This document shows, one piece after another, positions 2,600 through 54,364 of a stretch of DNA of 64,000 nucleotides. The DNA is taken from contig JBGQET010000007.1 in the NCBI GenBank assembly GCA_041496545.1, positions 5,424 through 69,423 on the forward strand, given 5' to 3'. Origin of the DNA: Candidatus Binatia bacterium (GTDB lineage: Bacteria > Desulfobacterota > Binatia > DP-6). The stretch's first letter is position 1. Each line of letters starts with the position of its first letter. The translations under genes and the position numbers were made by a program. The notes under the pieces were generated by a model. That model was not told the origin of the DNA and made no database searches. It saw only the letters and a list, made by a program, of their open reading frames with translations.

Positions 2600-2716
2600 C
2601 GTGCGCAGGAAGCCCACCGGCGTTCGGTGGCGCGGGCCCGGGGCGGGTTCGGGTTCGCCGCGCCGGAGTTCGACGAGTACCCGTGGGTTTTCGACGCCCC
2701 GCGCCGCTACCAGAGC

Positions 2717-4375
2717 GTGCGGGTCTTCCGGCGGGGTGTGCTGCGCCGCCTCGTCGTCGACTGCACGCTCGCGCCGGCGGGCGGCGGCACCCGCGTCGAG
2801 TACGTGACGCGCGCCGAGCTGATCGGCGGTCCCGTCGGCGCCGTCGCGCGCTGGCAGTTTCGCCGCCGCGTCGGGCGCGGCCTGGTGGCGGTGCGCGCGC
2901 TGCTCGAAGCGCGCGCCGGCGGGAGCGACATCGCGTGGGTCTTCCGTTATCCGCGCGAAGACGAGGTTCGGGCGCGTGCCCGGCCGCTCGTCGACGCGCT
3001 GGTCGGCGCGCACCCCGCCGACGCGCCGCTCTACGCGCGACTCGTCGACACCATCGCCATCGCGCCCGACGCGGACGTCGCGCGCATGCGGCCCTACGAG
3101 TTGGCCGTGCGCTGGGGGCTCGCGCGCCGCGACGTGCTCGCCGCGTGCCTCCGTGCGACGAAGGGCGGGCTGCTCCGTCTCTCGTGGGACATCGTCTGCC
3201 CTTCGTGCGAGCAGCCGCCGGCGACCGCCACACGTCTCGCCGACGTGCCGACCGGCGGCCACTGCCCGATGTGCGACGTCGACTTCGCGGTCAGCTTCGA
3301 GCGCGGCGTCGAGGCGACGTTCGCGCCCTCGCCCGCGCTGCGCGACGCGGAGCGCCTCGTCTTCTGCCACGGCTCGCCGATGCGGACGCCGCACTGGGTG
3401 GCGCAGTTCCCGGTCGAGGGCGGTGCGGTGCGCACGATCGCCACCCAGCTGGGTGCCGGGCGCTACCGCGTGCAAGCCTCGGGCGCCGACGGCCGCGCCC
3501 TCTTCGACGTCGATCCCGACGACGGCGGCGCTCGCCTGGGCGTCACCATCCCGGGGCCCGCGGTGGGGACGCGGCCGGCCGTCGTGCTCGACACGCCCAT
3601 CGTGCGCGCCGGCGCGCTCGAGCTGGTGGTGCGGAACGACGACACCACGCCCCACCGCGTGCAGGTGGTCCACCGCGACTACGAGTCGCAGGCCGCCACG
3701 GCGGCCGACGTGACGGCGCTCGGCGTCTTCCGCGACCTCTTCGCCGAGGACGTGCTCAGCCCCGAGCAGCACGTCGGGGTCGGCCGCACGGTGATCCTCT
3801 TCACCGACCTCGTCGGCTCGACGGCGCTCTACGAGCGGGTCGGCGACGCGGCGGCGTACGGCCTCGTCCGCCGCCACTTCCGTCTCCTCTTCGACGCCGT
3901 GGAGCGTCATCGCGGCGCGGTCGTGAAGACGGTGGGCGACTGCGTGATGGCGTCGTTCGCGCGGCCGCTCGACGGCGCGCGCGCGGGACGGGCGGCGATC
4001 GAGGCGCTCGCGGGCTTGACCGACCGCGATGGGAACGCCCCGGGGTTGGCGCTCAGGGTCGGCGTGCACGTCGGGCCGTGCCTCGCCATCGAGGCCAACC
4101 GCGTCGCCGACTACTTCGGGCGGACGGTGAACCTCGCGGCGCGCGTCGAAGCGCAAGCCGGGCCGAACGAGATGGTGCTCTCGGCGAGCATGCGCGACGA
4201 CCCGGAGGTCGCGGCCTGGCTCGCCGCCGCGCCCGCGGACGGCGTCGCCGTCCGTGCCGACCGCTGCGTGGTGAAAGGGGTCGCGGGAGAGCTGGAGGTC
4301 GTGCGCGTGGGCGTTCCCGTCAGCCCGGCGGCGGGCGGAGGAGCGCGAACTCCGGATTCGCGTACGCGCGCGTGA
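2717..4375 (+). CDS. Class III adenylate/guanylate cyclase with an N-terminal uncharacterised domain
   Basis: The C-terminal cyclase homology domain is clear (ILFTDLVGSTALYE…TVGDCVMASF…RVGVHVGPC…FGRTVNLAARVE). GTG start candidates are at 2717 and 2738. It is divergent from the P450 gene. Confidence 0.8.
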   Translation: MRVFRRGVLRRLVVDCTLAPAGGGTRVEYVTRAELIGGPVGAVARWQFRRRVGRGLVAVRALLEARAGGSDIAWVFRYPREDEVRARARPLVDALVGAHPADAPLYARLVDTIAIAPDADVARMRPYELAVRWGLARRDVLAACLRATKGGLLRLSWDIVCPSCEQPPATATRLADVPTGGHCPMCDVDFAVSFERGVEATFAPSPALRDAERLVFCHGSPMRTPHWVAQFPVEGGAVRTIATQLGAGRYRVQASGADGRALFDVDPDDGGARLGVTIPGPAVGTRPAVVLDTPIVRAGALELVVRNDDTTPHRVQVVHRDYESQAATAADVTALGVFRDLFAEDVLSPEQHVGVGRTVILFTDLVGSTALYERVGDAAAYGLVRRHFRLLFDAVERHRGAVVKTVGDCVMASFARPLDGARAGRAAIEALAGLTDRDGNAPGLALRVGVHVGPCLAIEANRVADYFGRTVNLAARVEAQAGPNEMVLSASMRDDPEVAAWLAAAPADGVAVRADRCVVKGVAGELEVVRVGVPVSPAAGGGARTPDSRTRA

Positions 4376-5698
4376 AGCCGAGACGCTCGAGCGCCGCTGC
4401 ATCCTCGCGGTGCGCGAGCACGACGGGCGCGTGCGGGACGCGGTCCGGGGCGGCGGTCGAGCGCAGGTCCCGGTCGAGATAGAAGAGGCAAGCGGCGCGG
4501 AGGTTCGGGCTGTCGGTGCGGAAGCCTGCGAGCGGGCTCCGGTCGCCGGGGGCGAGCACCTCGAGGGCCGGACCGAGCGCTTTCAAGTGCGTTGCGGCGT
4601 GCGTGTGGACGCGGATGGGGAGCACGAGGAGCGCCAGCCCGAGCGCGGCGAACAAGCGCGTCGCGACCTGGGGCACGCGCGCGCGCCAGCCGTCGGGCAG
4701 GACGCGGTCGAGGCCGAGCGCGGTCAGGATGGCGGCGGGCGGGTAGAACTGGTGCAGGTAGCGCGCGCGGCGGCCCTGCGAGAGGTAGAGGAGTGCCAAG
4801 TACCCGCCCGCCCAGCAGAGCACGTAGAGGAGGTTGCGGTCGCGGGCGCGCGCCGCGCGCACGGCGGCGACGACGCCGACGGCGAGGAACGCGACCCACG
4901 GCCAGTCGTCCTTCACGAGGACGCTCAGGTACGACGCCGTCGGCCCGCGCCAGAGCCGTCCCGCGAGCCGGTCGACGACCTGGGTGTGGAAGTAGGTGTT
5001 CAGGAAGGGCTCCCCCCAGTGCACCACCTCGTAGACGTGCCAGGGCAGGCAGACCGCCGCGCCGAGCGCGACCGAGGCGAGAAAGCGCCAGGAGAGGAGG
5101 AGTCCGAGCCGTCGCTCGACGGCGCACCAGATGAGGAACAGGTAGGGGCCCGTCAGCCCGAAGACGCCCTTCGTCATGACCCCGAGACCCCACGCGACGC
5201 CGGCGAGCGCGAAGCCGCGCCCGCCCGCCGCCGCCCCGCGCACGTAGAGCCAGAGCGAGAGGAGGGTGAAGAACGTCACGCCCGAGTCGAGGCGGAAGGT
5301 GGCCGAGTTCCGCACGAAGCGTGGCGTGGTGGCGAGCACCAGCGCCGCGGTCAGCGCGAGCCGCTCGTCCACGAAGCGCCGCGCGAGCTGGAAGAGCACG
5401 ACGCAGGAGAGGACGCCGAAGAGCGCCGAGAAGAGCTTCGCCGCGAACACCGACGGGCCGAGGACGCGGTAGCTGGCGGCCGCGAGCCAGAACATGAGCG
5501 GGGGCTTGTTCCAGTAGTGCGTGTCGCCCAGCCAGAGGTTGAGCCAGTCCCCCGACCTGACGATGCCCTTCGCAACCGCGGCGTAGAGCACCTCGTCGCG
5601 GAAGAGGTCGCCCTCCCAGAGGCGCGCCATCATCGTGACCGCGGCGGCGAAGAGGACGAGCAGCAGGCCGCGGCGGCCGAGGGCGGGCTCGCTCACGG
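4320..5698 (-). CDS. Glycosyltransferase family 39 (ArnT/PMT-like, dolichyl- or undecaprenyl-phosphate sugar transferase)
   Basis: It is polytopic and shows GT39 features (…GDTHYWNKPPLMFWL…). A GTG start at 5698 overlaps the upstream cytochrome c stop by about 4 nt. Confidence 0.75.
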
Positions 5699-6556
5699 CG
5701 CGGAGAGGCTCGGCGCCCGGTACACCGGCGGGACGCGGAACACGTCGTGCGGATGGTCGCCGATGAAGCCGTCGAAGTCCTGCCCGAGCGTCTGCACGCC
5801 GGGGTCGTCGAGGAAGCGGCGGAGGGTGTCGTCGTCGCGGAAGGCGAACAGCGTGGTGAGGACGGTCTGCGGGCGGCGGCGGTCGACGAAGGTGTCGATG
5901 CCGAGGAGCCCGTTCCAGGTGAGGAAGCGGGGCCGGCCGGTGGCGGCGAACCACTGCTCGAAGTCGGCGAGCCGTCCCTCGCGCACGTCGTAGGTCTGGA
6001 CGAGGAAGCTCTTGGCCTCGCTGGGTGGCGGCGCGGGGAGGGCGGCGAGCGCCGGCGGGGTGGTGTGGACCGCGTGCGGGTTCGCGGGATCCACCTGCGC
6101 GGTGAGGTACGCGACCAGGTCGGCGAGCTGCGCCAGCGTCATGTCCGGGTAGGCGGGCATCACCGAGTGGCCGTCGGGGTCGAGGTAGCCCGGGCCGGCG
6201 ATCAGCACGGCGTCGGGGTTCAGGATCGACTCGACGAAGTACTCGGGCGGGTGATGGCTCCCCATGCCGGAGAGATCGGGCCCCGCACCCGCGGTGGGCG
6301 AGCCCTTCTCGCCCGCGATCGCGTGACACGCGGGGCAGCCGAGGTCGACGAACGCCCGTCGCCCGGCGACCGGGTCGCCCGGCGGCGGCGTCAGGCGCCA
6401 GCCGGGCGGCACGCCGCCGGCGCGGTGGAGCGCGTCCATCGAGATGCGGACGCCGGGTTCGCCGCGGCGGACCGCGCGCCCGCCGCCACCCCGCTCACCG
6501 CACGCGCCCGCGAGCAGCGCCGCGAGCCCGAGGGCGACCACCGACCTCCTGGGCAC
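5693..6556 (-). CDS. Mono-heme cytochrome c lipoprotein
   Basis: It has a lipoprotein signal peptide (LAALLAGACG) and a single CPACH heme-binding motif. Confidence 0.75.
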   Translation of the reverse strand: MPRRSVVALGLAALLAGACGERGGGGRAVRRGEPGVRISMDALHRAGGVPPGWRLTPPPGDPVAGRRAFVDLGCPACHAIAGEKGSPTAGAGPDLSGMGSHHPPEYFVESILNPDAVLIAGPGYLDPDGHSVMPAYPDMTLAQLADLVAYLTAQVDPANPHAVHTTPPALAALPAPPPSEAKSFLVQTYDVREGRLADFEQWFAATGRPRFLTWNGLLGIDTFVDRRRPQTVLTTLFAFRDDDTLRRFLDDPGVQTLGQDFDGFIGDHPHDVFRVPPVYRAPSLSAP

Positions 6557-7856
6557 CGAGGCCCTCTGTCACAAGCGGTCGGGCGTGCGCAAGCGACGAG
6601 GCGTCGCAACTCGAGCCGCTCGCTCCGGGGAGCGCGTCGAAGTAGAAGCCGGTGAGCGCGCACGCCTCGTCGTCCGGTGTCGCGCCGCCGACCGCGTTGG
6701 CGACGACGCACGCACCCGTGAAGCTGCGGCCTGGATAGGCCGGGTCGGCGGACGGGCAGGCGAGCGGATTCTGCACCTCGGTGCACGGCCTGGCCGGGCC
6801 CCCGCCGGGCAGACCGCGCGGCGTTCCGGGCGGCTCTCCCGCGCGCTCCTCGCAGCCGAGGCGCGTCGGGGTCGACACCCCGTTCTCGGTCCAGCACTCG
6901 TAGCGGAGCATCTGCCCGGCGCGCAGCAGCAAGGGCGGCTGGAGCGACCGCGTCCCCGGGTCGGTGTAGTCGACGGCGCCGAAGAAGTGCCGCCGCCCCG
7001 GCTCGAACGGGTTCGCCACCGCGTCGCCGCCGGCGAGGACGTTTCCACCCGCATCGACGACGTCGACGCCGAGGAAGCGTCCCCGCTCGTGCATGCGTCC
7101 GGTGATCGCGAGCACGCACACGTCCCCGGCGGGGCCGCCCCCGACGCCCGGTTCCCACACGTCGCGTACGGGTGGCTGGTCCGGGAGCAACGCGTTCAGC
7201 GCGGCCGTGGAGGCTTCCGTCGAGCGCAGCGCCGACGGCGGGACCAGCAGACCCAGCTCCGCCGACGCGGCCTCGAGCGGCAGCGCGATGCGCGGGGACC
7301 GATTGCGCGGCGCGCGCCGCAGCGTCGCCGACGCCGACCCGACCCGCGGCCGGTCCGCCCCGTTCACCCAGTTGATGTCGAGGAGGAAGCCGATGCCGCC
7401 CGGGCCCTCACCCGGGGCGCGCGGCGTCGGAGCGAGACGGAGCGCGACCCCCGGGGGCAGGGCCCGCCGGGCGCGGACGGCGAAGCCGCTCGCCACGAGT
7501 TGGCGACGATCGCGGTCGGACGGACCCAGAGCGAGGCAGGCGCGGCTCGACACCACTCGCCCCGCGTCGGCCGCGAACTCCGCGAACCGCTCGCCTCGGT
7601 ACAGGTAGACGAGGAAGTGCGCGATGCCGAAGGCGCCGCGTGCCCCCTGGACGCGCAGGTCCCAGCTTTCGAGATCGAAGGGCGTCGTCGCGCGCAGGGG
7701 GACGAAGACGCAGAGCTCCGGCCTGGTCCCCGCCGCGACGCTGACGTGCGGGAAGCGGAGCTTGACGGTGCGCGGCTCGCGCGCCGGCGCCGGGCGGCTG
7801 GCGAGCACGAGCAGCGCGACGAAGAAGCCGGCTCCACGCAGCGGCGTGCGGATCAT
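6495..7856 (-). CDS. Secreted PHM/DBH-like protein, a paralogue of the 52641..53825 protein with the copper ligands lost
   Basis: It has a signal peptide and aligns along its length with the 52641 protein (ELCVF/EVCEAL; LGCEE/LGCEAT; …DDEAC/…DDDMC). The HH, H, HxH and M positions are mostly substituted. Confidence 0.65.
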   Translation of the reverse strand: MIRTPLRGAGFFVALLVLASRPAPAREPRTVKLRFPHVSVAAGTRPELCVFVPLRATTPFDLESWDLRVQGARGAFGIAHFLVYLYRGERFAEFAADAGRVVSSRACLALGPSDRDRRQLVASGFAVRARRALPPGVALRLAPTPRAPGEGPGGIGFLLDINWVNGADRPRVGSASATLRRAPRNRSPRIALPLEAASAELGLLVPPSALRSTEASTAALNALLPDQPPVRDVWEPGVGGGPAGDVCVLAITGRMHERGRFLGVDVVDAGGNVLAGGDAVANPFEPGRRHFFGAVDYTDPGTRSLQPPLLLRAGQMLRYECWTENGVSTPTRLGCEERAGEPPGTPRGLPGGGPARPCTEVQNPLACPSADPAYPGRSFTGACVVANAVGGATPDDEACALTGFYFDALPGASGSSCDASSLAHARPLVTEGLGAQEVGGRPRARGAARGRVR

Positions 7857-7875: not shown

Positions 7876-8925
7876 TCACGGGAAGGCGAGGCGCTTGCCG
7901 TGAGCCTTCACGCGAAAGTTGTCCGTCGAGCGCCCGAGCAGGCCGCCCGCGGCGTAGCTCGTCTGCACCGCGACGGGCGTGCCGGCGGGCGCGGGCAGCA
8001 CCGGGGCACGGAGCTTCACGGCGAGGAGGTAGTTGTCGATCTGGAAGCGACGGCGCACGAACCGCACGCCCATCGACAGGAGCCGATCGTCGCTGCTCGC
8101 CACGAACAGACGGCGGCCGCGCTGGCGGAGCCCGCCCAGCACCGCGCCGGCGCCGATCGTGACCCCGCCGGTGCTGGCGCGGAAGATCGCCGGCTTGCCG
8201 GGAAAGTCGAGGACTTCGTCGGGGTTCGGCGCGAAGAGCACCCTCATGGTCAAGGTTTTCGAGGTCACGCCCGCCGACACGACGACGGAGTCGGTGCTGC
8301 GACGGAACTGGTCCTTGTCGGGGACGGGTGTGGCCTGGCAGCTCGCGCGCACCACCAGCACGCCGCCGAGCGGCGACGGGAGCCCGCTCTGCTGGACGAC
8401 GCCGACGAGCGTGTAGCGGCCGTTGGCGTCCCGCGGCGAGCCCTCGAGGACGAGACCCGGCACCGCCGTGAGCCCCGTGGTGAGCGTCATCGGTAGGGTG
8501 AGCGCCGCGCCGCCGACCGTGAAGCCGAGCGGGAGGTCGGGGACGATGAACTCGCCGGTGCTGCCGCTGCGCGCGCCGGTGCTGCGCAAGAGCGCCACGA
8601 AGAAGCTCGGCAGCTCGAGCATGCTCGCGGTCCCGCCGGCGACGAACGGGCGCGCCGCGTCGGACTGCAGCGTGAACTGCGCGGTCTGATCCTGCATGTC
8701 GTAGGTGGTGTGCACGCCGTCGGGCGCGTTGGAGGGCGGGGCGGTCGCCGCGACGCCGCTGGCCGGGGCGTCGACCTCGAGGGGGTCGAAGGCGCACGTG
8801 CTGGGGAGCACGGGGACGTTGTGCGCCCCGGCCGCGCGTGCCGAGAGGAGCGCGGCCAGGACGAGGATCGAGCGCCGGAGCGCCATGATGGAGGTGAAGC
8901 TAGAAGCGCGCCGCGTACGACGCAA
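7876..8925 (-). CDS. Secreted hypothetical protein
   Basis: A signal peptide (MALRRSILVLAALLSARAAGA) is present from the alternative start at 8886. The gene sits first in the minus-strand operon 8925 to 4320. Confidence 0.6.
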   Translation of the reverse strand: MRRTRRASSFTSIMALRRSILVLAALLSARAAGAHNVPVLPSTCAFDPLEVDAPASGVAATAPPSNAPDGVHTTYDMQDQTAQFTLQSDAARPFVAGGTASMLELPSFFVALLRSTGARSGSTGEFIVPDLPLGFTVGGAALTLPMTLTTGLTAVPGLVLEGSPRDANGRYTLVGVVQQSGLPSPLGGVLVVRASCQATPVPDKDQFRRSTDSVVVSAGVTSKTLTMRVLFAPNPDEVLDFPGKPAIFRASTGGVTIGAGAVLGGLRQRGRRLFVASSDDRLLSMGVRFVRRRFQIDNYLLAVKLRAPVLPAPAGTPVAVQTSYAAGGLLGRSTDNFRVKAHGKRLAFP

Positions 8926-9407: not shown

Positions 9408-10334
9408 ATGCGAAATCGGATGGGCGCCGCGGGTGTGCTCGTCGTCTGCCTCGGGGCAGCGACGGCGCACGCTCACGGCGTCGTTGGAGAGCGATCGTTC
9501 ATCGAGCCATTCATCACCGAGGACGTGAACCCGAAGAACGAGTTCGTGATCGCACGACCGGAGTTCGATCATTCCCGCGACGGGAAGGAATTCTCGCTCG
9601 GCTTCGGCCTGGAGAAGAAGATATCGGATCGCTTCAGCCTCACGCTCGACTCGTCGTGGAACGACATCACCCCGAAGGCGGCGGACGAGCCGCACGCCAG
9701 CGGCTTCGGCAACCTCGGCCTCACCCTCAAGTACGCGTTCTTCATCAACCCGGCGCACGAGGCCATCGCCTCGTTCGCGATCGAGTCGACGGCGCCGACC
9801 GGCACCGCCGACGTCGGCGCGGAGCAGCGCGCGTCGTTCAAGCCCTTCGTGCTCTACGGCAAGGGCGCCGGCGACCTGCCGTCGTGCCTCAAGTACCTCC
9901 GCCCGCTCGCCGTGCAGGGCGACGCGGGCTTCGAGATCTCCCTCGACAACGACCGCACCACGACCCTCGTGCACAACGTCGCGATCCAGTACAGCATCCC
10001 GTACCTCCAGTCCGTCGTGCGCGACTTCGGCCTGCGCTGGCCGCTCAACAAACTGCTCCCCGTCGCCGAGTTCAACTTCGAGCACGGCGTGAACGGCGCG
10101 GAGCACGCCGTCCACAAGGTGACCACTACCCCGGGCATCGTCTACATGGACCGCTGGGTCGAGATCGGGATCGCGGGACGCTTCCCGCTCAACACCTCCG
10201 CGCACCGCGACCTCGACTGGGGCGTGATCGGCATCATCGACCTCTTCATCGACGACATCTTCCCGTGGTCCCGGTGGCAACCGATCGGTGGCATGGGGCT
10301 GCCGACGCCACCCGCCAACGAGCCAAAGTCGTGA
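9408..10334 (+). CDS. Secreted or outer-membrane protein, possibly an outer-membrane channel of the phenol-degradation (MetA-pathway) family
   Basis: It has a GGAAGGGG RBS and a signal peptide. Its stop overlaps the copC GTG start (GTGA). Confidence 0.6.
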   Translation: MRNRMGAAGVLVVCLGAATAHAHGVVGERSFIEPFITEDVNPKNEFVIARPEFDHSRDGKEFSLGFGLEKKISDRFSLTLDSSWNDITPKAADEPHASGFGNLGLTLKYAFFINPAHEAIASFAIESTAPTGTADVGAEQRASFKPFVLYGKGAGDLPSCLKYLRPLAVQGDAGFEISLDNDRTTTLVHNVAIQYSIPYLQSVVRDFGLRWPLNKLLPVAEFNFEHGVNGAEHAVHKVTTTPGIVYMDRWVEIGIAGRFPLNTSAHRDLDWGVIGIIDLFIDDIFPWSRWQPIGGMGLPTPPANEPKS

Positions 10335-10693
10335 AGCGCGGCGTCGCGGCGTTCGGTTTTCTCGTGGGTCTGCTCGCGCTCCGGCCGCCCCCGGCCGGAG
10401 CGCACGCCTTCCTCGACCACGCGGAGCCGCGGGTGGGGTCGAGCGTCGCGGCGCCTCCCACCCTGACGCTCGTCTTCACCGAGCCGGTCGAAGCCGGCTT
10501 CTCTCACCTCGCCCTCCGTGCGCCGGACGGCAAGCCGGTCGAGACGCCGGCGCTCGAGCAGCCGGCGCCGAACACGCTGCGTGTTGCGCTGCCGGCGCTC
10601 GCGCCGGGCGAGTACACCGTCGAGTGGGGCGTGGTCTCGGTCGACACGCATCCGACCGACGGCCGCTTCAACTTCTCCGTGAAGAAACCGTGA
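10331..10693 (+). CDS. copC: Copper resistance protein CopC (periplasmic copper chaperone)
   Basis: It has a signal peptide followed by the mature N-terminus HAFLDHAEP and a CopC-like beta-sandwich sequence. It is translationally coupled to both neighbours. Confidence 0.75.
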   Translation: MKRGVAAFGFLVGLLALRPPPAGAHAFLDHAEPRVGSSVAAPPTLTLVFTEPVEAGFSHLALRAPDGKPVETPALEQPAPNTLRVALPALAPGEYTVEWGVVSVDTHPTDGRFNFSVKKP

Positions 10694-11514
10694 ACGCGGC
10701 CTTCACGGTCACCGGCTGGCTCGACCTGGTGGCGACGGTGCTCCTCGCCGGCGGCCTCGTGTTCGCCGCGGCGGTCGCGACGCCCGCGGAAGCCGGCCGG
10801 CGGACGATGCGCGTGGCTGCCGACGCCCTCGCGCCGGTCCTCGTCGCGAGCTTCGCGCTGGTCGGCATCCGGATGCACGAGGTGGCGGGTGGCGAGGGCG
10901 TCGGATTCGTCGGCCGGCTCCTCGCCATGCACTGGGGGCGCTACTGGATCGGCCGCGCCGCCGGCCTCGTCGTGCTGCGCGTCGGGCTCGCGGCGGCGCG
11001 CCCGCGCTGGACCCTCCTCGCCGTCTTCGCCGTGCCGTGGCTCCTCCTGCGGAGCTCCCAGGGGCATGCGGGGGCGCACGGCACGGTGCCCGCGCTCGTC
11101 GACTGGGCGCACCTCGCGGGCGCCGCGGCGTGGCTCGGCGGTCTCGCGCAGATGGCGCTCCTCGCCGACGACGTGCCGGCCGCGGCGCGCCTGCGGCGCC
11201 TCGCGACGGCGGCGCTGGCGCTCGTCGTGCCCGCCGGCGTGTACGCGGCCTTCCTGCACGTCCCGAGCCTCGACCGGCTGCTGCACACGCCCTACGGGCA
11301 GACGCTCCTCGCGAAGCTCGCCCTGGTCGCCGTCCTCTTGACGCTCGGGGCCGCGAACCACTTCCGTCACGTGCCGGCGCTGGTCGCGGGGGACGCCGTT
11401 GCCGCCGTGCGGCTCCGGCGCACGGTGCGGATGGAGCTGGTGCTCGCCGCCGTGATCCTGCTGCTCAGCGCGCTCCTCGGCGTGCTGCCGATGCCGCACG
11501 AGCCGCCCTCGTGA
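10690..11514 (+). CDS. copD: Copper resistance protein CopD (inner-membrane copper transporter)
   Basis: It has eight predicted transmembrane helices with CopD family character. The GTG start overlaps the copC stop. Confidence 0.75.
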   Translation: MNAAFTVTGWLDLVATVLLAGGLVFAAAVATPAEAGRRTMRVAADALAPVLVASFALVGIRMHEVAGGEGVGFVGRLLAMHWGRYWIGRAAGLVVLRVGLAAARPRWTLLAVFAVPWLLLRSSQGHAGAHGTVPALVDWAHLAGAAAWLGGLAQMALLADDVPAAARLRRLATAALALVVPAGVYAAFLHVPSLDRLLHTPYGQTLLAKLALVAVLLTLGAANHFRHVPALVAGDAVAAVRLRRTVRMELVLAAVILLLSALLGVLPMPHEPPS

Positions 11515-46146: not shown

Positions 46147-47955
46147 ATGGAGCGCCTGACTCGTAACACCGCGCTCGGCATCGCCGAAGGCGAGGATCGC
46201 GGGGCGTCGGCCGGCGACCGGTCGCCGGCCGCGGCGCCCTTCGTCGGCAGGCGCGACGATCGTCGCATGCTCGACGCGGCGCTCCGCGCCGCGATCGGCG
46301 GCGAGGGCCAGGCCGTGCTCGTGGCCGGAGAGCCGGGAAGCGGGAAGAGCCGCCTGCTGGCCTGGCTCGGGGACCGGGCGAGCGGTCTCGGCGCGCGTGT
46401 CCTGAGCGCCCAGTGCCTCGGCGGCCCGGCCGAACCGCCCTACTGGCCCTGGATCGAGATACTGCGGACCTACGCGCGCCAGGTGCCGCCCGATGCCGTC
46501 CGATCGGTCTTCCGCGGCGCTGCCGGGCGGCTCGCCCCGCTCGTGCCCGAGCTCGCCCAGCTCCCCTCGGACCCGAGCGACGCCTGGGGCGACGGCGAGG
46601 GCCTCTTTTGGCGGCTCGACGCCTTCGGCGGCTCGCTCCGTCAGGTGGCGCTCGCAGACCCCCTCGTCATTCTCATCGAAGACCTCCACCTCGCCGACAC
46701 CCCCTCGCTCCTGGTCTTCGAGTGGGTGGCCCGGGAGATCGGCGACGAGCGCTTGCTTCTGGTCGCGACCTACCGCGACTGCGACGTCGGCCCGCAACAC
46801 CCGCTGTCGGACACGCTGACCGAGCTCGTCCGGCTGCCGCGATTCGATCGCCTGGTGCTGTCGCCGCTCACACGCGAGGACGTCGGCGACTATCTCGCGC
46901 TTCTGACGGGCACGAGCCCCGCGGCCGCCGCGGTGGATGCGATCTACGCCTACACCGCGGGCAATGCGATGTTCGTGAGCGAGGTCGCCCGCCAATCGGT
47001 ACGGGAGCGGCTCCCGCTCGGCGCCCAGGACTGCGCCTCGCGTGCCGTGCCGCTCGCGATCCGCGATTTCGTCCGTGGACGGATCGGGCGGCTGCGGACG
47101 TATTGCACGCGCGTGCTCACGGCGGCAGCCGTGATCGGCCGGCAATTTCCGCTCACCCTGCTCTGCGAAGTCCTCGCCCAGCCCGAAGACGACGTCATCG
47201 AATCGCTCGAGGAGGGGCTCGCCCTGCAGCTCGTCGCGCGCGACGCCTCAGCCCCGGGCCACTATCATTTTGCCGCCCCCGTCCTGCACGCCGCCATCCT
47301 GGGCATGATCCCCCCGAGCCAGCGCGCCCGGCTCGAGCGGCGCTGCGCCCGACTGGTCGCGACTCCCGACGATGCGACGAGCCCGGCGCCGTGCGACCCT
47401 CAAGCCGCCGTCATGCGCCGCGACGGCGAATTCTGGACCATCGTGTTCGCGGACACCGTCATGCGACTGCGCGACTCGACCGGCCTGCGGTGCCTGTCGC
47501 ATCTGCTGCGTCACCCGGGCCGCGATCTCCTGGCGCTCGACGTGGCGGTGCTGGCGAGCGGGAACGGCACCGAGGCGGTCGCGGAGCGCGCGGGCGGAAC
47601 GGTGATCGATGCCCGCGCGCGCGATACGTACAAACAGCGGATCCGGGAGCTCGAAGCCGAAGCCGGCGAAGCCGAGCGCTGCAACGATTTCGACCGCGTG
47701 CGCCGGGTCCGAACGGAGCTCGATTTCCTCCTCCGAGAGCTCGCACACGGGCTCGGCCTCGGCAACCGGATGCGCACCCACGTGGGTCCGGCCGAGCGCG
47801 CACGGATCAACGTGACGCGCACCATCAAGACGGCGATCAAGAAGATCACCGCCGCCGACCCCCGGCTCGGCCGCCACCTCACCGCCACGGTCCATACGGG
47901 CGTCTACTGCTCGTACAACCCGGATCCGCGACTGCCGATCGCCTGGACCTCCTGA
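46147..47955 (+). CDS. AAA_16-type P-loop ATPase (STAND/MalT-like N-terminus) with no recognisable output domain
   Basis: It has Walker A (GEPGSGKSRLL) and Walker B (LVILIEDLHLAD). The C-terminal 300 aa could not be assigned. Confidence 0.75.
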   Translation: MERLTRNTALGIAEGEDRGASAGDRSPAAAPFVGRRDDRRMLDAALRAAIGGEGQAVLVAGEPGSGKSRLLAWLGDRASGLGARVLSAQCLGGPAEPPYWPWIEILRTYARQVPPDAVRSVFRGAAGRLAPLVPELAQLPSDPSDAWGDGEGLFWRLDAFGGSLRQVALADPLVILIEDLHLADTPSLLVFEWVAREIGDERLLLVATYRDCDVGPQHPLSDTLTELVRLPRFDRLVLSPLTREDVGDYLALLTGTSPAAAAVDAIYAYTAGNAMFVSEVARQSVRERLPLGAQDCASRAVPLAIRDFVRGRIGRLRTYCTRVLTAAAVIGRQFPLTLLCEVLAQPEDDVIESLEEGLALQLVARDASAPGHYHFAAPVLHAAILGMIPPSQRARLERRCARLVATPDDATSPAPCDPQAAVMRRDGEFWTIVFADTVMRLRDSTGLRCLSHLLRHPGRDLLALDVAVLASGNGTEAVAERAGGTVIDARARDTYKQRIRELEAEAGEAERCNDFDRVRRVRTELDFLLRELAHGLGLGNRMRTHVGPAERARINVTRTIKTAIKKITAADPRLGRHLTATVHTGVYCSYNPDPRLPIAWTS

Positions 47956-48189: not shown

Positions 48190-49074
48190 ATGAACCGCAT
48201 CCGATACACTATCGCGGCCATGGTCGGGTTCCTGGTGACCGCGCCCATGGCGACCGTCTACACGGCGGGTCCGCCGACGGTGAGCAATTTCTCTATCGCG
48301 GACGTCACCAACGGCGGTGTCCTGACGGAGGTGGACGGAAGCCACGGGGTGCCGGGCGACGTCGTGCGAGTCGGCTACGTGCAGCGGAACTTCAACGAGG
48401 GCGTCCCCGGCGCCGCGACCGACCCGTTTGCGTGGTGCGCCTGGAAGAACGGTGGGAACGAGATCACCCTCGGCTGGGCGACCGTCAACCAGTTCGGCGA
48501 CTTTGCGCTCCCGAATCTGTCGACACAGGTCTATCCGACCAACCCCACCGACGTGTGCGCCTCCGGCTTGATGACACAGATCATCACTCACTCGAATTTC
48601 GGCCCGTCCACGGTGCCCGTCCTGCACTGGCTGAACATTGGCAAGCCCGCGAACGGCATACGGACCGTTGCCGGCTCCATCCAGTACGCCACTCAGGTCG
48701 CGGCGATGGTCGCCGACGGCCCGAAGGACGTCGACGGCGGCGAGAACCACGCGGACCTGAGCACCGACGGCATCGGCGCCGGGCGGCAGGTGAGCTGGAA
48801 GGGGAACGGCGGCACGTTCCAGTCGCCGACCTGCAACGTGGTCGATGAAACGAACATCGGGTCTCCGACGCAGGAGTTCCCCTTCATCGTCGGCAAGCTC
48901 GTCGGCCACGCGCCCGGCGGCTCGGTGCTGGCGATCGCCAAGGGAACTCGACCGGCACTGCGGAATCCGCAGACGATCTACGTCAAGGTGAACATCAAGG
49001 GTCTCCCGGGATGCGGCGGGGGCGGGTTCGGCAGCGGCGCCGGCCTCCTCGGCAGCATCTTCAAGTTCCTCTAG
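48190..49074 (+). CDS. Secreted hypothetical protein
   Basis: It has a signal peptide and lower GC, and it ends Gly-rich (GCGGGGFGSGAGLLGSIFKFL). Confidence 0.6.
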   Translation: MNRIRYTIAAMVGFLVTAPMATVYTAGPPTVSNFSIADVTNGGVLTEVDGSHGVPGDVVRVGYVQRNFNEGVPGAATDPFAWCAWKNGGNEITLGWATVNQFGDFALPNLSTQVYPTNPTDVCASGLMTQIITHSNFGPSTVPVLHWLNIGKPANGIRTVAGSIQYATQVAAMVADGPKDVDGGENHADLSTDGIGAGRQVSWKGNGGTFQSPTCNVVDETNIGSPTQEFPFIVGKLVGHAPGGSVLAIAKGTRPALRNPQTIYVKVNIKGLPGCGGGGFGSGAGLLGSIFKFL

Positions 49075-49136
49075 CCGTCGCGCGGGAACCGGCGTCCATG
49101 TGGCCGCCGGTTCCCGCCCTACTGGAGAGCCATCCC

Positions 49137-50993
49137 ATGTATCCTCACTTCCCCGTGATTCAGCTACACGCGATCGGCACGCTGGTCCGCATCGAGTCCT
49201 ACCCGGCGGCCCACGTCATCGGGCTTCTGGTCCTCGTCGTGATGACGCTCCGCCTCTACGCACGCGACGTCCGCCCGACAGCCACGCTACTCGATCCGTT
49301 CCTCTTCGGCGTCCCGGCCGCGATGCTGGGTGCGAGCGTCCTGGGGTCGCTCACGGCGGGGACATGGCTCCCCGAGCACCTCTCGCTCGCCCCGTCGGTT
49401 CTGTGGACGGGCCACCGGTCCGCGTACGGCGGGTTGCTTGCGGGCGTGGCCGTGGCGGCGCTCGTCGCACGACTCCGACGGATCGACGTCTTGTGCTTCC
49501 TCGATGCGGGCGCGCCTGGCCTGGCCTTCGCGACCTGCTGCGCCCGCATCGGCTGCTTTCTCGGCGGCTGCTGCTACGGCCTTCCTACCGCGTCGGTGCT
49601 GGGCGTGCGCTTTCCCGACGGCCACCCGGGGATGGCAAAGCTCCTGCCCGGTGATCCACGCGGCCTCCATCCGACGCAGCTCTATCTGGCTGCCGCCGCG
49701 CTGGCGATCGGGCTCGTCCTGCTTGCGCTCCGTCGCCGGCAGTGGGGCCGACCCGGACATCGCTTCGCGCTCGGCGCCGCGCTCTACGCCGCTACGACGT
49801 TCGCCGTCGAGCTCCTGCGGGACGACCCGGGCCGCTGGTTCGCCCTCGGCCTCTCCCACACGCAGTGGATCAGCATCGCGATCGTGCTGGCGACGGCCGT
49901 GGTTCTCGGGCGCTCGCCGCGCTTCGCCCGCCGCCGGACGCCCGCGGTCGCCGTCGGTCTTCTGCTGGTCCTCGCCACGACTCCGGCGCGCGCCCAGAGC
50001 GCCGACGACGCGTTCAACGCCATCGCGGAAGGCCTCGTCACCCGTAACCCGACCGCTTCCGTCCTCGTCGCCCAGCTCCTCGAGCTGGGCGGCGGCGGCC
50101 CGCTCACCACTTGGGCGCGGATCGCCAAAGGCGCCGACGGGCTGCTCCAGGGCGACCTCGGGGGCGCGATCGCGCAATGGCAAGCGGCGGCCGCCGCGGA
50201 CCCCGGCACGGCGTGGAGCGCCCAGGCCGACCTCGCGCTCGGCCTGGGGTACATGATGGCCGGCGCCCGCGGCGGGGCCGCGGATGCGCTGGCGGCCGCC
50301 GCCGAGCACGGCGAAGGTGACACGGTCGCGTACGCGGAGGTGTCACTCGGCCGGCTGCAAGCCGTGGCGGGGGACTACGCCGGCGCCGAGCGAAGCTTCC
50401 GACGCGTGTTCGAGGACTACTCCGCCGTCGGAGTTGCCGACGACGCCGCCCTCGGCCTCGCCAAGAGCCTCGTCGCCCAGGACCGACGCGCGGAGGCGCG
50501 CGAGGTGCTCGCCGTTGCGCACGGGCGCTACTGGCATCGCGGGGCGTACATGGTCGCGCGGCGCAACCGGCCGCTTCCGTTCGACCAGGTGGGCAGCCTC
50601 ACGCCCGCGCAGCTCGGGGAGGCGCTCAGGGCGCGCGCCGCCGGCGCGGCCACCCGCGGCGTCTTGCCGATCTACGCCGTGCTCGCGGCGCTGACCGATC
50701 ACTACTCCGGCCCGGACCTCGAGCGGCTCCGTCACCAGATCGCCCGCGCGCCCGGGGCGACGTCCGACCGACCGGCGGCGGCTGCCGTGGTCCAGGCTCG
50801 AGCGGTCGAGCCGGGCGCCGCATCGCAAGCGAGCTCACGCGGGCACTCCACGCCGCGACCACTCGCAGCCGGTCACCGGCAAGGGTTCGGCCGCGTGGCG
50901 GTCGCGTTGCTCGCCCTCGTCGCCACGACCGTAGCGTGGCTGCGCCGGGCCCGCCGGGGTGGACAACCGGGGCGCGGCGCGGTCTACCGATAA
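49137..50993 (+). CDS. Prolipoprotein diacylglyceryl transferase (Lgt)-like membrane domain fused to a C-terminal TPR-like domain
   Basis: Lgt signatures are present (ARIGCFLGGCCYG, HPTQLY). An Ala-rich TPR-like tail ends in a transmembrane segment. Confidence 0.7.
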   Translation: MYPHFPVIQLHAIGTLVRIESYPAAHVIGLLVLVVMTLRLYARDVRPTATLLDPFLFGVPAAMLGASVLGSLTAGTWLPEHLSLAPSVLWTGHRSAYGGLLAGVAVAALVARLRRIDVLCFLDAGAPGLAFATCCARIGCFLGGCCYGLPTASVLGVRFPDGHPGMAKLLPGDPRGLHPTQLYLAAAALAIGLVLLALRRRQWGRPGHRFALGAALYAATTFAVELLRDDPGRWFALGLSHTQWISIAIVLATAVVLGRSPRFARRRTPAVAVGLLLVLATTPARAQSADDAFNAIAEGLVTRNPTASVLVAQLLELGGGGPLTTWARIAKGADGLLQGDLGGAIAQWQAAAAADPGTAWSAQADLALGLGYMMAGARGGAADALAAAAEHGEGDTVAYAEVSLGRLQAVAGDYAGAERSFRRVFEDYSAVGVADDAALGLAKSLVAQDRRAEAREVLAVAHGRYWHRGAYMVARRNRPLPFDQVGSLTPAQLGEALRARAAGAATRGVLPIYAVLAALTDHYSGPDLERLRHQIARAPGATSDRPAAAAVVQARAVEPGAASQASSRGHSTPRPLAAGHRQGFGRVAVALLALVATTVAWLRRARRGGQPGRGAVYR

Positions 50994-51035
50994 AAATTGC
51001 TCGGCGCGCCGAGGATCGCTAGGCACCGGTACCTC

Positions 51036-52589
51036 ATGCGGATCCTGCTCATCGCTCCCCGCAATCCCGAGTCCTTCTGGACCTGGGACCGCATCCTGCC
51101 GACGATCGGCACGCGGTGCTTCTTCCCCAACCTCTCGCTGCCGACGGTGGCCGCGCTCACGCCGCCCGAGCACGAGGTCGTCTGCTGCGACGAGAACGTC
51201 GAGCCGATCGACTTCGACGCCGAAGCCGACATCGTGGGCGTGACCGGCTACGTCGTGCACCTGCGGCGCGTCCTGGAGATCGTGGACGAGCTCAAGCGCC
51301 GCGGGCGCTTCGTCGTCGTCGGCGGCCCGGTCGCCTCGCTCTGCCCGGAGCGCTTTCGCGACCGCGCCGACGTCGTGTTCATCGACGAAGCCGAGGAGAC
51401 CTGGCCGCGCTTCCTCCGCGACCGGGCCGAGGGCCGGTGGCAGCACGAGTACCGCATGGAGGAGAAGCCGAGCCTGGAGAACGCGCCGCTCCCGCGCTTC
51501 GACCTGCTCAAGCTCGACCGCTACCGGACGATGACCGTACAGTTCGCGCGCGGCTGTCCCTACAGTTGCGAGTTCTGCGACATCATCGCGATGTACGGGC
51601 GGCGGCCGCGCAGCAAGACGGTCGAGCAGTTGATGCGGGAGGTCGCCGAGCTGGCGCGCCTCGGGGTGCGCAACGTCTTCATCGTCGACGACAACTTCAT
51701 CGGGGACAAGAAGAAGGCCAAGGCGCTGCTCCGCACGCTCGCCGCCTGGCAAGCGGAGCACGGCTACCCGCTCGAGTTCTTCACGGAGCTCTCGCTCAAC
51801 GTGGCGCAGGACGCCGAGCTGCTCGAGCTGCTCCGGGCGGCGCGCTTCACGACCGTCTTCATCGGCATCGAGTCACCGCGCGCGGCAAGCCTCCAGGAGA
51901 CGAAGAAGACGCAGAACCTCCGCGAGGACATGGTGGCGGCCGTGCACCGCGTGCAGGAGGCCGGCATCGAGGTGATGGCCGGCATGATCGTCGGCTTCGA
52001 CCACGACGACGCGGAGATCTTCGACGAGCACCTCCGCTTCATCGAGGAAGCCCGCCTCCCGGTGGCGATGACCGTCATGCTGAACGCCATGCCGCGGACG
52101 CCCCTCTACGAACGGGTGAAGCGCGAGGGCCGCCTGCTCGCCGAGTCGGTGGGCGACTGCTTCACGCTCACGAACATCGTGCCGCAGAGGATGTCGCTGC
52201 TCGCGCTGTACGAGGGCTACCAGCGCCTCCTGCGCACGCTCTACGACTACGACACGTATCGGCGCCGCGCGATGGCGCTCGTCCTCGCCAAGGGGCGCGA
52301 CGTCCGCACGCGGTCGCTCGCGGGCTGGCGCGACCTCCCGCTCTTCTTCCGCCTCCTCTGGACGTGCGTGCTCGGCGCCTCGCGCGACTACCGGCGCATG
52401 ACGCTCGCCATGATGGGCGAGACCGCCCGGCGCCGTCCCGAGCATCTCCGTCTCGCGGCCGCGCTCGCCCTCAAACACAAGCACCTGCACGGCTACGTGC
52501 AAGACGTCTCGGCGCAGCTCGACGGCGCCATCGCGGAGCTGCGTCGGGCGTCCGAAGGGGCGGGGGCACTGCGGCAGGCCGTGTCCTGA
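51036..52589 (+). CDS. B12-binding domain radical SAM protein (class B rSAM, DUF4070-type C-terminus)
   Basis: It has an N-terminal cobalamin-binding domain and the CPYSCEFCD rSAM cluster motif. Confidence 0.85.
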   Translation: MRILLIAPRNPESFWTWDRILPTIGTRCFFPNLSLPTVAALTPPEHEVVCCDENVEPIDFDAEADIVGVTGYVVHLRRVLEIVDELKRRGRFVVVGGPVASLCPERFRDRADVVFIDEAEETWPRFLRDRAEGRWQHEYRMEEKPSLENAPLPRFDLLKLDRYRTMTVQFARGCPYSCEFCDIIAMYGRRPRSKTVEQLMREVAELARLGVRNVFIVDDNFIGDKKKAKALLRTLAAWQAEHGYPLEFFTELSLNVAQDAELLELLRAARFTTVFIGIESPRAASLQETKKTQNLREDMVAAVHRVQEAGIEVMAGMIVGFDHDDAEIFDEHLRFIEEARLPVAMTVMLNAMPRTPLYERVKREGRLLAESVGDCFTLTNIVPQRMSLLALYEGYQRLLRTLYDYDTYRRRAMALVLAKGRDVRTRSLAGWRDLPLFFRLLWTCVLGASRDYRRMTLAMMGETARRRPEHLRLAAALALKHKHLHGYVQDVSAQLDGAIAELRRASEGAGALRQAVS

Positions 52590-52640
52590 AGGGCTGGACG
52601 TCCCGGGCCGCCCCGGTCTAGAGAAGGAGCCGAGGCGGCC

Positions 52641-53825
52641 ATGCGACGCATCGTGATCGGGCTCGTGCTCGCCTGTTTGGCGGCGCCCGCCATCGCCCAC
52701 GAGCGGGTCGTGCACCTGAAGGTCGGCCCGTTCTGGGTCCCCGCCAAGCGCGACCGCGAGGTGTGCGAGGCGCTGCGCATCCCGCGCGTGGCCGGGATGG
52801 ACGTCGTCAGCTTCGAAGCCCGCTCGCGCACCGGCAACGGCGTCGGCTCGCACCACTTCGTCGCCTACGCCTACCGGGGCGCGAACAGCGCCGCCTTCCC
52901 GAAGGGCATCGTCGACGACCCGGGCTGCAACGGCTTCGGACCCTCCGACTTCTTCACCACCCGCGGCTTCATCGCCGGCTCGGGCGGCGAGTACCAGCGC
53001 GGGCGCTGGCTCATCACGCGCGGCGGCTTCCCGGACGGGCTCGCGCTGCGCATGTCCGGCCCCGCCGACGCGCCGCGCGACACCTACGTCGTCCTCAACT
53101 CGCACTACTTCAACGACAACCCGACCCGGCCGGGCCGCGCGCTCGTGCGTCTCACGCTGCGTCTCGCGCCCGCCGACCCGCGAAAGCGCGTGCTCCGCAT
53201 GCTGACCGAGGTGACCGCCAGCCGCGACATCTTCGTCCCCCCGGGCGGGACGGCGACCGTCGAGGCGACCTGGCAGGCCGACGGGCGGCCGAACCCGGGC
53301 ACCGAGGGCGCCGCCAACCCGGCCCGCGACGTCTGCCTTCTCTACCTCGGCGCCCACATGCACAAGCGCGGCCGGCGCTTCCTCCTCACCTACGAGGAGG
53401 ACGGCAAGCCGCCCCAGGAGATCCTCGACGTGCGCGACTATCTCCATCCCGGCATCGCGTACTTCGGCCGCGGCCGCTTGCTGCACGCGTACACGGCGGA
53501 GAACGGGCACCCGCGGTTCCGCTACGCTTGCACGCACGAGAACGGCGCCGAGGGCGTGCCCCTCAAGCTCGGCTGCGAAGCGACGCCCGGCGTCGTTCCC
53601 GGGCTCAAGTGGACGGACGCCGAGGCGCGCGGCATCTCGCCGCTCGACGCCCACGCGCGCCCGTGCGGCGCGGGCGGCGTGAACTGCGCCGGCGAGCCCT
53701 GCGTCGCGGCCAACCTCGTCTTCGGCCCGCTCTCCGACGACGACATGTGCGTGCTGCCCGGCGCACTCTACGACCCGCTGCCCGGCGTGCCGCCCGAGCA
53801 AGCGTGCAACCCCTTCGGCTTCTGA
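52641..53825 (+). CDS. Secreted copper type II ascorbate-dependent monooxygenase homologue (PHM/DBH-like) with all ligand positions intact
   Basis: It has a signal peptide. The copper-ligand motifs align with PHM (see the corresponding finding). Confidence 0.75.
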   Translation: MRRIVIGLVLACLAAPAIAHERVVHLKVGPFWVPAKRDREVCEALRIPRVAGMDVVSFEARSRTGNGVGSHHFVAYAYRGANSAAFPKGIVDDPGCNGFGPSDFFTTRGFIAGSGGEYQRGRWLITRGGFPDGLALRMSGPADAPRDTYVVLNSHYFNDNPTRPGRALVRLTLRLAPADPRKRVLRMLTEVTASRDIFVPPGGTATVEATWQADGRPNPGTEGAANPARDVCLLYLGAHMHKRGRRFLLTYEEDGKPPQEILDVRDYLHPGIAYFGRGRLLHAYTAENGHPRFRYACTHENGAEGVPLKLGCEATPGVVPGLKWTDAEARGISPLDAHARPCGAGGVNCAGEPCVAANLVFGPLSDDDMCVLPGALYDPLPGVPPEQACNPFGF

Positions 53826-53839
53826 CGAGGAGCGCGACC

Positions 53840-54364
53840 ATGCAGCGCCGGATCCGTCTCGCCTGTCTCTCGGCCGTCGCCCTGCCGGCGCTCGCCTTCG
53901 CCGGCGGCTTCAACAAGACGTACCTCGTGCCCGCGTTCCTCGGCTGCGCCGGGCCCGCCACCTGCGCACCGCAGCGCGAGTCGCTCTACCGCTTCGACTC
54001 CGCCGTCCTGCGCAACTCCGCGTCGCGCTTCCTCGTCCCGGGCAAGGTTGCCTTCATGTTCGAGATCAAGGGCGTGCGTGACGGGGGCGGAAACCTCGTC
54101 ACCACCAACACGGCCGACCGCAGTGACGACTTCAAGCTCGTCTCGATCCCGGGCCAGATCACGATCACGGGCCTCGGCACGTTCCCCGCCGACGCCATTC
54201 CCGAGGTCGTCCTGCCGCTCGACCTGAAGAACGGCGCCGGCAAGCTCTCGTTCAAGACCCCCGAGGCGACGCCGCCCGGCCTCGTCTCCGACGGCGGCGG
54301 CATCGTCGTCCTCGACAACCAGGGCAAGCGGCTGGCGGTCGTCGGCGCGATGTCGAAGCCGTAG
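53840..54364 (+). CDS. Secreted hypothetical protein
   Basis: It has a signal peptide (LACLSAVALPALAFAG) and lies 15 nt downstream of the monooxygenase-like gene. Confidence 0.6.
   Translation: MQRRIRLACLSAVALPALAFAGGFNKTYLVPAFLGCAGPATCAPQRESLYRFDSAVLRNSASRFLVPGKVAFMFEIKGVRDGGGNLVTTNTADRSDDFKLVSIPGQITITGLGTFPADAIPEVVLPLDLKNGAGKLSFKTPEATPPGLVSDGGGIVVLDNQGKRLAVVGAMSKP

Follow-up and report, generated by a model that had tools for sequence, protein, structure and literature searches.

Does a secreted protein from a Candidatus Binatia bacterium belong with the two-copper monooxygenases known from animals, and if so, what might it act on? The question arises from a 64,000-nucleotide stretch of contig JBGQET010000007.1 (assembly GCA_041496545.1, positions 5,424 to 69,423 of the forward strand), hereafter called the window. 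Here, the initial annotation had proposed a bacterial homologue of peptidylglycine α-hydroxylating monooxygenase (PHM) carrying the full set of copper ligands. PHM is an animal two-copper enzyme that matures peptide hormones, and DBH is the maker of noradrenaline; together with TBM, they are the textbook non-coupled binuclear copper monooxygenases. To our knowledge, mechanistic work on PHM, DBH and TBM has been done exclusively on ascorbate-using animal enzymes. The fold of the Binatia protein (below, the enzyme), a chain of profile-profile alignments and the invariance of its ligand residues support its assignment as a very distant but genuine homologue within the PHM/DBH superfamily. Its gene is followed by that of a small secreted partner protein. 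The gene and its signals are as follows (open reading frames are abbreviated ORFs).

52641..53825, plus strand: gene of the secreted, two-domain PHM/DBH-superfamily copper monooxygenase homologue, 394 amino acids, ATG start
52623..52629, plus strand: Shine-Dalgarno-like GAAGGAG, 11 nucleotides before the ATG at 52641, read from the sequence
52641..52697, plus strand: signal peptide, residues 1-19, predicted cleavage after AIA, from sequence features

Homology to PHM and DBH

An AF2 model of the enzyme, computed from a 36-sequence alignment, reached a pLDDT of 90.6 and a pTM of 0.84 and consists of two beta-rich domains. When this model was compared with the PDB using Foldseek, the top 16 matches were PHM or DBH only (best E 8.8e-12, target-normalised TM 0.66), and the two-domain antiparallel beta-sandwich core of the superfamily is present in the enzyme. 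Profile-profile alignment leads to PHM in two steps. With hhalign, the family was joined to 14 bridging proteins with a probability of 100% (E 1.8e-46, 276 columns), and the bridging profile to rat PHM with a probability of 96.7% (E 3.8e-10, 234 columns), both domains being covered each time. The rat PHM query is 100% identical to PDB 4e4z_A across 312 residues, corresponding to PAM residues 45-356. In addition, relatives of about 300 amino acids, recovered by the family profile with library-wide E-values of 1e-14 to 1e-6, pass the Pfam gathering threshold for PF03712 (Cu2_monoox_C).

Direct searches weigh against this assignment. A Pfam scan of the enzyme returned no family even at E<=1, which includes the Cu2_monooxygen and Cu2_monoox_C models that had been proposed as a check, and an NCBIfam scan gave no match. 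Searching PDB sequences with the enzyme by phmmer yielded nothing relevant, and a hidden Markov model built from 36 homologues likewise matched no PDB sequence. The N-terminal model PF01082 (Cu2_monooxygen) matched no member of the family, PF03712 matched 10 of the 36 homologues below threshold (best E 0.0095), and hhalign of the 36-homologue profile directly against rat PHM gave an E-value of 0.026 with a probability of 1.9%. This weak segment still pairs NSH(155)YF with QVH(172)YG and H(239)MH(241)KRG with H(242)TH(244)HLG. Because the direct profile searches are non-significant, the homology is visible only through intermediates and structure. The initial annotation had named the absence of a significant profile hit as grounds for rejecting its proposal; taken literally, direct searches indeed found none, but the chain through intermediates reaches PHM, and the proposal of a bacterial homologue with a full ligand set holds at the superfamily level.

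Copper ligands, disulfides and a clade-specific insertion

Ligand positions were placed by a MAFFT alignment that included the intermediates and rat PHM, and invariance was counted in an alignment of 36 homologues with 48-77% identity to the enzyme.

52851..52856, plus strand: codons of H71-H72, aligned with the HH of PHM (CuH ligands H107/H108), invariant in the 36 homologues
53103..53105, plus strand: codon of H155, aligned with PHM CuH ligand H172 (NSHYF with QVHYG), invariant
53355..53363, plus strand: codons of H239-M240-H241, aligned with PHM CuM ligands H242/H244; H239 and H241 invariant
53745..53747, plus strand: codon of M369, aligned with PHM CuM ligand M314 (SDDDMC with SSDEMC), the sole invariant Met
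53547..53705, plus strand: clade-specific insertion of about 55 residues (about 303-355) with invariant C312, C342, C349 and C354, gapped against the bridging family and PHM

All five motifs that had been matched to PHM by eye were found in the translation and fall into register with the rat protein: DREVC(42) with DTYFC(81), SHH(71,72) with VHH(107,108), NSH(155)YF with QVH(172)YG, H(239)MH(241)KRG with H(242)TH(244)HLG, and DDM(369)C with DEM(314)C. Invariant positions number 69 of 394 (17.5%) and include H71, H72, H155, H239, H241 and M369; for six positions named in advance, the probability of finding every one invariant is about 3e-5. M369 is the one invariant Met among the six of the enzyme, and five of the six invariant His residues are ligand equivalents. 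We infer a CuH site formed by H71, H72 and H155 and a CuM site formed by H239, H241 and M369, as predicted from the sequence. Cysteines of three PHM disulfides also have counterparts (C42/C96 for C81/C126, C297/C370 for C293/C315, and C389 for C334), and the Cys-rich insertion sits between the CTHxNG strand and the strand that carries the CuM Met.

The sixth invariant His, H269 (DYLH269PG; nucleotides 53445-53447), lies in the C-terminal domain and has no PHM counterpart. It is invariant in the close family, and most distant relatives carry D or E at this position. Its role could be that of an additional ligand, or of a catalytic residue peculiar to the subfamily that has the partner.

Among 29 distant full-length relatives aligned at the six ligand positions, 22 read HHHHHM, and the other seven (P0144, P0151, P0156, P0161, P0164, P0165 and P0169) lack three to five of the ligands. 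Joint loss of this kind is the pattern expected if the six residues work as a unit, and it indicates that the scaffold was converted, repeatedly or anciently, to a non-copper function. These relatives bear on whether the enzyme is an oxygenase at all, since a periplasmic protein that binds or buffers copper, or transfers electrons, could be built on the same scaffold with its metal sites, but carry out no C-H hydroxylation. The window itself encodes CopC and CopD as well as a ligand-less paralogue of the enzyme (described below), evidence of a non-catalytic use of the scaffold in this lineage, and there is no clue to a substrate. However, two distinct sites are strictly kept, including a His2Met CuM site typical of O2 activation; the ligand-losing lineages drop three to five of the six residues and retain no single site for binding; and the enzyme and partner genes are unlinked to copper-homeostasis genes in the genomes examined. 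We regard a non-oxygenase role as unlikely.

Export of the enzyme

The coding sequence at 52641-53825 was confirmed as that of a secreted 394-residue protein by its ATG, its ribosome-binding site and its Sec-type signal peptide (MRRIVIGLVLACLAAPAIA, followed after the cleavage site by HE). The G+C content of the window is about 72% throughout and gives rise to many long spurious ORFs on both strands; the ORF of the enzyme, however, has numerous homologues (see below). In the AF2 model, residues 2-13 form a low-confidence helix, and the N-termini of the homologues are all hydrophobic and variable. Two other export routes were considered and rejected. Residue 12 is a Cys, which together with the Lgt gene nearby had suggested a lipoprotein; this was discarded because the Cys is not kept in homologues and there is no lipobox; Tat export was discarded because the RR pair is not kept in homologues either.

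A rare clade outside curated models

A family profile search of 1.84 billion cluster representatives recovered 223 proteins at E<=1e-3, in agreement with the rarity that had been claimed for bacterial members. The relatives come from Candidatus Binatia, an "uncultured delta proteobacterium", Thermodesulfobacteriota and one Limnocylindria metagenome-assembled genome (MAG). In a collection of 5.8 billion proteins, the enzyme has 154 homologues at E<=1e-3, all annotated as "hypothetical" and none with a precomputed Pfam domain. The identical protein is present in the MAGs GCA_041485145.1 and GCA_041492335.1 and in one JGI metagenome. In the full-text literature searched, no bacterial PHM/DBH homologue is described as characterised, which does not prove that such a description is absent elsewhere. 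The superfamily itself is already known; what is distinct is a rare clade outside the curated models, with an insertion of its own and an obligatory partner.

Differences from PHM, DBH and other bacterial relatives

The enzyme shares with PHM (the PAM catalytic core; PDB 1PHM/1SDW; PF01082 plus PF03712) the His3 set of CuH and the His2Met set of CuM, in the same order and at aligned positions. Both proteins are secreted, and at least two disulfides have equivalents (C81-C126 and C293-C315). Overall identity is 14-16%. The H72-to-H155 spacing is 83 residues against 64 in PHM, the H241-to-M369 spacing 128 against 70, and the Cys-rich insertion of about 55 residues before the Met-bearing strand is absent from PHM. 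The enzyme further differs in being bacterial, in lacking a PAL partner and having an obligatory small partner protein instead, and in that ascorbate is an unlikely donor.

In PHM, R240, N316 and Y318 bind the C-terminal glycine carboxylate and the peptide backbone. Their counterparts in the enzyme are G237 (the family has G/T/S here), V371 (V/I) and P373 (P/T/V). Because these residues are replaced, the enzyme is not a PHM orthologue; and as the disulfide-rich insertion also lies near the CuM Met in sequence, its substrate is probably not a C-terminal peptidyl-glycine. It is accordingly most improbable that we are dealing with a true bacterial peptidylglycine α-hydroxylating enzyme catalysing the first step of amidation on Gly-extended peptides, despite the common ligand set: in addition to the altered pocket, identity to PHM is low, and neither a PAL-like lyase gene nor a gene for a Gly-extended precursor was linked in the neighbourhoods examined.

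DBH, TBM and MOXD1 (PDB 4ZEL) carry an N-terminal DOMON domain, which is missing from the enzyme; therefore, its architecture is not that of DBH. Also related are the bacterial Cu2_monoox_C proteins of about 300 amino acids (e.g., P0199, P0204 and P0268), which are secreted and have the HH/H/HxH/M ligands in common with the enzyme. These proteins and fused forms pass PF03712, but they lack both the Cys-rich insertion and the partner gene family. The fused relatives include proteins with cytochrome-like, dockerin or PD40 domains (P0260, P0261 and P0153), and many bacterial relatives have an N-terminal Cx4CH domain that is not found in the enzyme.

A strictly linked secreted partner protein

53840..54364, plus strand: partner gene, the downstream ORF, 174 amino acids, secreted Ig-like beta-sandwich with C36, C42, a GVRD motif and a ...TGSQSKP tail
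53827..53832, plus strand: Shine-Dalgarno-like GAGGAG of the partner gene, within the 14-nucleotide intergenic gap, read from the sequence

A homologue of the partner gene lies directly downstream of the monooxygenase gene in 17 of 17 loci from at least 11 different genomes, and the two genes overlap by 4 nucleotides in one locus (L018) and by 25 in another (L019). The two genes form a cassette, and their products are probably co-translated and sent to the periplasm; the partner, too, has a signal peptide. Pfam and NCBIfam scans of the partner gave no match, and a Pfam domain is annotated in none of its 72 homologues. The AF2 model is an Ig-like beta-sandwich (pLDDT 87.8). Invariant features are C36 and C42, which form a C-x5-C pair, and the motif G78-V-R-D81, in which R80 is nearly invariant; there is no conserved His or Met among the homologues. 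In the same genome pairs, identity is about 40% for the partner and about 55% for the enzyme, which indicates that the partner evolves faster.

The nearest relatives outside the partner-associated clade are represented by the sister subfamily P0126 (36% identity), which keeps the ligands and the insertion and is surrounded by catabolic-looking genes. As no partner gene is present at this ligand-bearing locus, the partner is not needed for the basic chemistry, and a role in substrate specificity is more likely. Being subfamily-specific and free of conserved metal ligands, the partner would most likely have the task of determining or presenting the substrate, or else be the substrate itself.

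The last of these options can be stated more precisely: the two proteins might form an enzyme-substrate pair in which a partner residue is hydroxylated, most plausibly in the C-terminal tail, which is both flexible and conserved (...TGSQS[KR]P-COOH). Such a pair would echo the action of PHM on peptide C-termini, at a different residue. Strict linkage in all 17 loci, confinement of the partner to this subfamily and its absence from the ligand-bearing sister subfamily are consistent with this view, and the lack of conserved His or Met argues against a metal or redox protein. The C-terminus is also suggestive. It reads [KR]P in 49 of 64 homologues and xP in 54 of 64, with a typical end of ...LAVTGSQSKP; the last three residues are the sole segment with a pLDDT below 50; and invariant R243 of the enzyme, adjoining the CuM His pair, could bind a carboxylate. 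However, some partners run one or two residues beyond KP or end otherwise, one genome has a large deletion in the partner and an intact enzyme, and a protein substrate encoded 1:1 with its enzyme, and hence stoichiometric, would be unusual. An enzyme-substrate pair is thus a tentative proposal, with the odds well against it. Somewhat less probable still is its most specific form, a new post-translational modification system of the uncultured phylum Binatota in which the enzyme hydroxylates, or oxidises in some other way, the conserved ...SQS[KR]P tail of the partner with electrons from a periplasmic cytochrome c. If true, this would be the first bacterial ascorbate-independent PHM-type monooxygenase dedicated to a single co-encoded protein.

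Several irregular cassettes were noted. At L006 (9134-9460, on a contig shared with L009), the partner has a large internal deletion (108 amino acids against about 170) next to an intact enzyme gene, and at L016 (6001-7732, another MAG), both enzyme and partner look frameshifted. Long-read assembly errors could explain these cases, as could decay of the cassettes. An apparent natural fusion of enzyme and partner, P0172, was rejected, as it looks like a frameshifted gene call in a long-read MAG.

Electron donor

We know of no general supply of ascorbate in the bacterial periplasm; the likeliest donor is therefore a redox protein of the periplasm, for example a c-type cytochrome. Distant relatives provide a hint in this direction. 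In eight of eight fused relatives (P0152, P0160, P0168, P0217, P0246, P0254, P0260 and P0261), the HH motif is preceded by a Cx4CH motif at a distance of about 165-175 residues. Only P0260 among them passes the Pfam model PSCyt1 ("Planctomycete cytochrome C"), and P0254, P0246 and P0168 have cytochrome-like matches below threshold. The Cx4CH domain may serve bacterial PHM-type enzymes as an integral heme c donor of electrons. These relatives suggest c-type cytochrome domains, and not ascorbate, as the electron source of the superfamily in bacteria. In the window, a cytochrome c gene follows the paralogue of the enzyme, which fits this view.

Proposed mechanism

The mechanism of PHM and DBH is established (reviewed in PMC12164859). 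By analogy, and building on the fold and homology, the conserved ligands, the export signals and the gene linkage described above, the Binatia enzyme would be a periplasmic, ascorbate-independent two-copper hydroxylase acting with, or on, its partner; we assign this reading a rough probability of 0.65. In the N-terminal beta-sandwich, H71, H72 and H155 would hold CuH, the electron-transfer copper, and in the C-terminal beta-sandwich, H239, H241 and M369 would hold CuM, the O2-activating copper. O2 bound at reduced CuM would abstract hydrogen from a C-H bond of the substrate, with hydroxylation to follow as in PHM and DBH. Each turnover would need two electrons, which would enter through CuH from a periplasmic redox protein. 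The Cys-rich insertion may reshape the substrate pocket, and the partner would determine or present the substrate, or serve as the substrate. Apart from the failed direct searches, three points speak against this reading: the sister-subfamily locus has the ligands and no partner gene, no electron donor gene is linked to the enzyme-partner cassette, and all sequences come from metagenome assemblies.

Binatia are known from genomes only, and oxidative C1 and alkane metabolism has been remarked on in this lineage (PMC8262859). The present assignment adds a bacterial branch with an intact ligand set that lies outside current Pfam models, and it provides more than 150 "hypothetical proteins" of soil and sediment Binatia MAGs with a fold and a likely chemistry. 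Small, secreted and probably tractable in recombinant form, the enzyme could serve as a model for long-range electron transfer from CuH to CuM, and the system could show whether ascorbate can be replaced by a protein donor, for example cytochrome c. Its strict pairing with one partner points to a new mode of substrate delivery or a new protein modification.

Upstream gene neighbourhood

50997-52589, plus strand: B12-binding radical SAM protein with a C-terminal DUF4070 domain
49011-50993, plus strand: LGT-TPR fusion of unusual make-up, a prolipoprotein diacylglyceryl transferase (LGT) domain followed by a long C-terminal TPR/YbgF-like periplasmic region
48190-49074, plus strand: secreted 294-amino-acid protein with a Gly-rich C-terminus, between the AAA_16 ATPase and Lgt-TPR genes
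46147-47955: AAA_16 ATPase gene

The flanking genes named in the initial annotation, namely the small secreted partner, the B12-radical SAM enzyme and the Lgt-TPR fusion, are all present. Across the other genomes examined, only the partner is conserved; the radical SAM and Lgt-TPR genes are missing from each of these neighbourhoods. NCBIfam matches of the radical SAM protein all fall far below their cut-offs, the best being a PhpK-type methyltransferase model (102 bits against 600). The LGT-TPR ORF spans 660 amino acids, and gene callers chose a start that gives 618. The 294-amino-acid protein has no Pfam or NCBIfam match.

These genes invite the idea that the enzyme works with the radical SAM, Lgt-TPR and 294-amino-acid proteins in one larger maturation cluster, such as a RiPP-like pathway or one that modifies lipoproteins. 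In the window genome, all genes between 48190 and 54364 run in one direction and are separated by short gaps, and LGT and AAA_16, as separate genes, occur within 4 kb in the distant locus L007. On the other hand, tblastn with these three proteins as queries found no radical SAM or 294-amino-acid homologue in the loci of other genomes and matched LGT and AAA_16 in L007 only, a co-occurrence that we treat as coincidence. The neighbourhoods of P0058, P0087, P0107, P0003 and P0009 all differ. A functional link to the three upstream genes, which are not conserved neighbours, was rejected on the strength of tblastn and the neighbourhood comparison; the latter largely refutes the cluster, to which we give very little credence.

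A ligand-less paralogue and other genes of the window

6495-7856, minus strand: second PHM-like gene, 453-amino-acid ORF, 30% identical to the enzyme (tblastn E 5e-24)
5693-6556, minus strand: c-type cytochrome gene (PF00034, CPACH motif), directly after the paralogue
7876-8925, minus strand: gene of a secreted 349-amino-acid protein, preceding the paralogue
about 10330-10693, plus strand: CopC gene, about 2.5 kb from the paralogue
about 10690-11514, plus strand: CopD gene, about 2.5 kb from the paralogue

The paralogue retains the fold-defining Cys residues and the insertion. At the ligand positions, AH stands in place of HH, N in place of H155, R.H in place of H.H and A in place of the Met; of each pair, HH and HxH, only the second His is left. 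The paralogue shares 44% identity with a ligand-less metagenomic subfamily (P0161) and is probably a pseudo-enzyme or a binding protein. The start of a protein similar to the 349-amino-acid protein adjoins P0161 in L022. Together with the cytochrome c, CopC and CopD genes, the paralogue and the 349-amino-acid protein gene may make up a periplasmic copper/redox neighbourhood.

Elsewhere in the window, two long ORFs overlap on opposite strands, at 1298-4402 (minus) and 1370-4375 (plus). The minus-strand ORF ends in a cytochrome P450 with the heme motif FPFGGGPHRCIG, and a segment resembling class III nucleotidyl cyclases (ILFTDLVGSTALYERVGD) lies within the plus-strand ORF.

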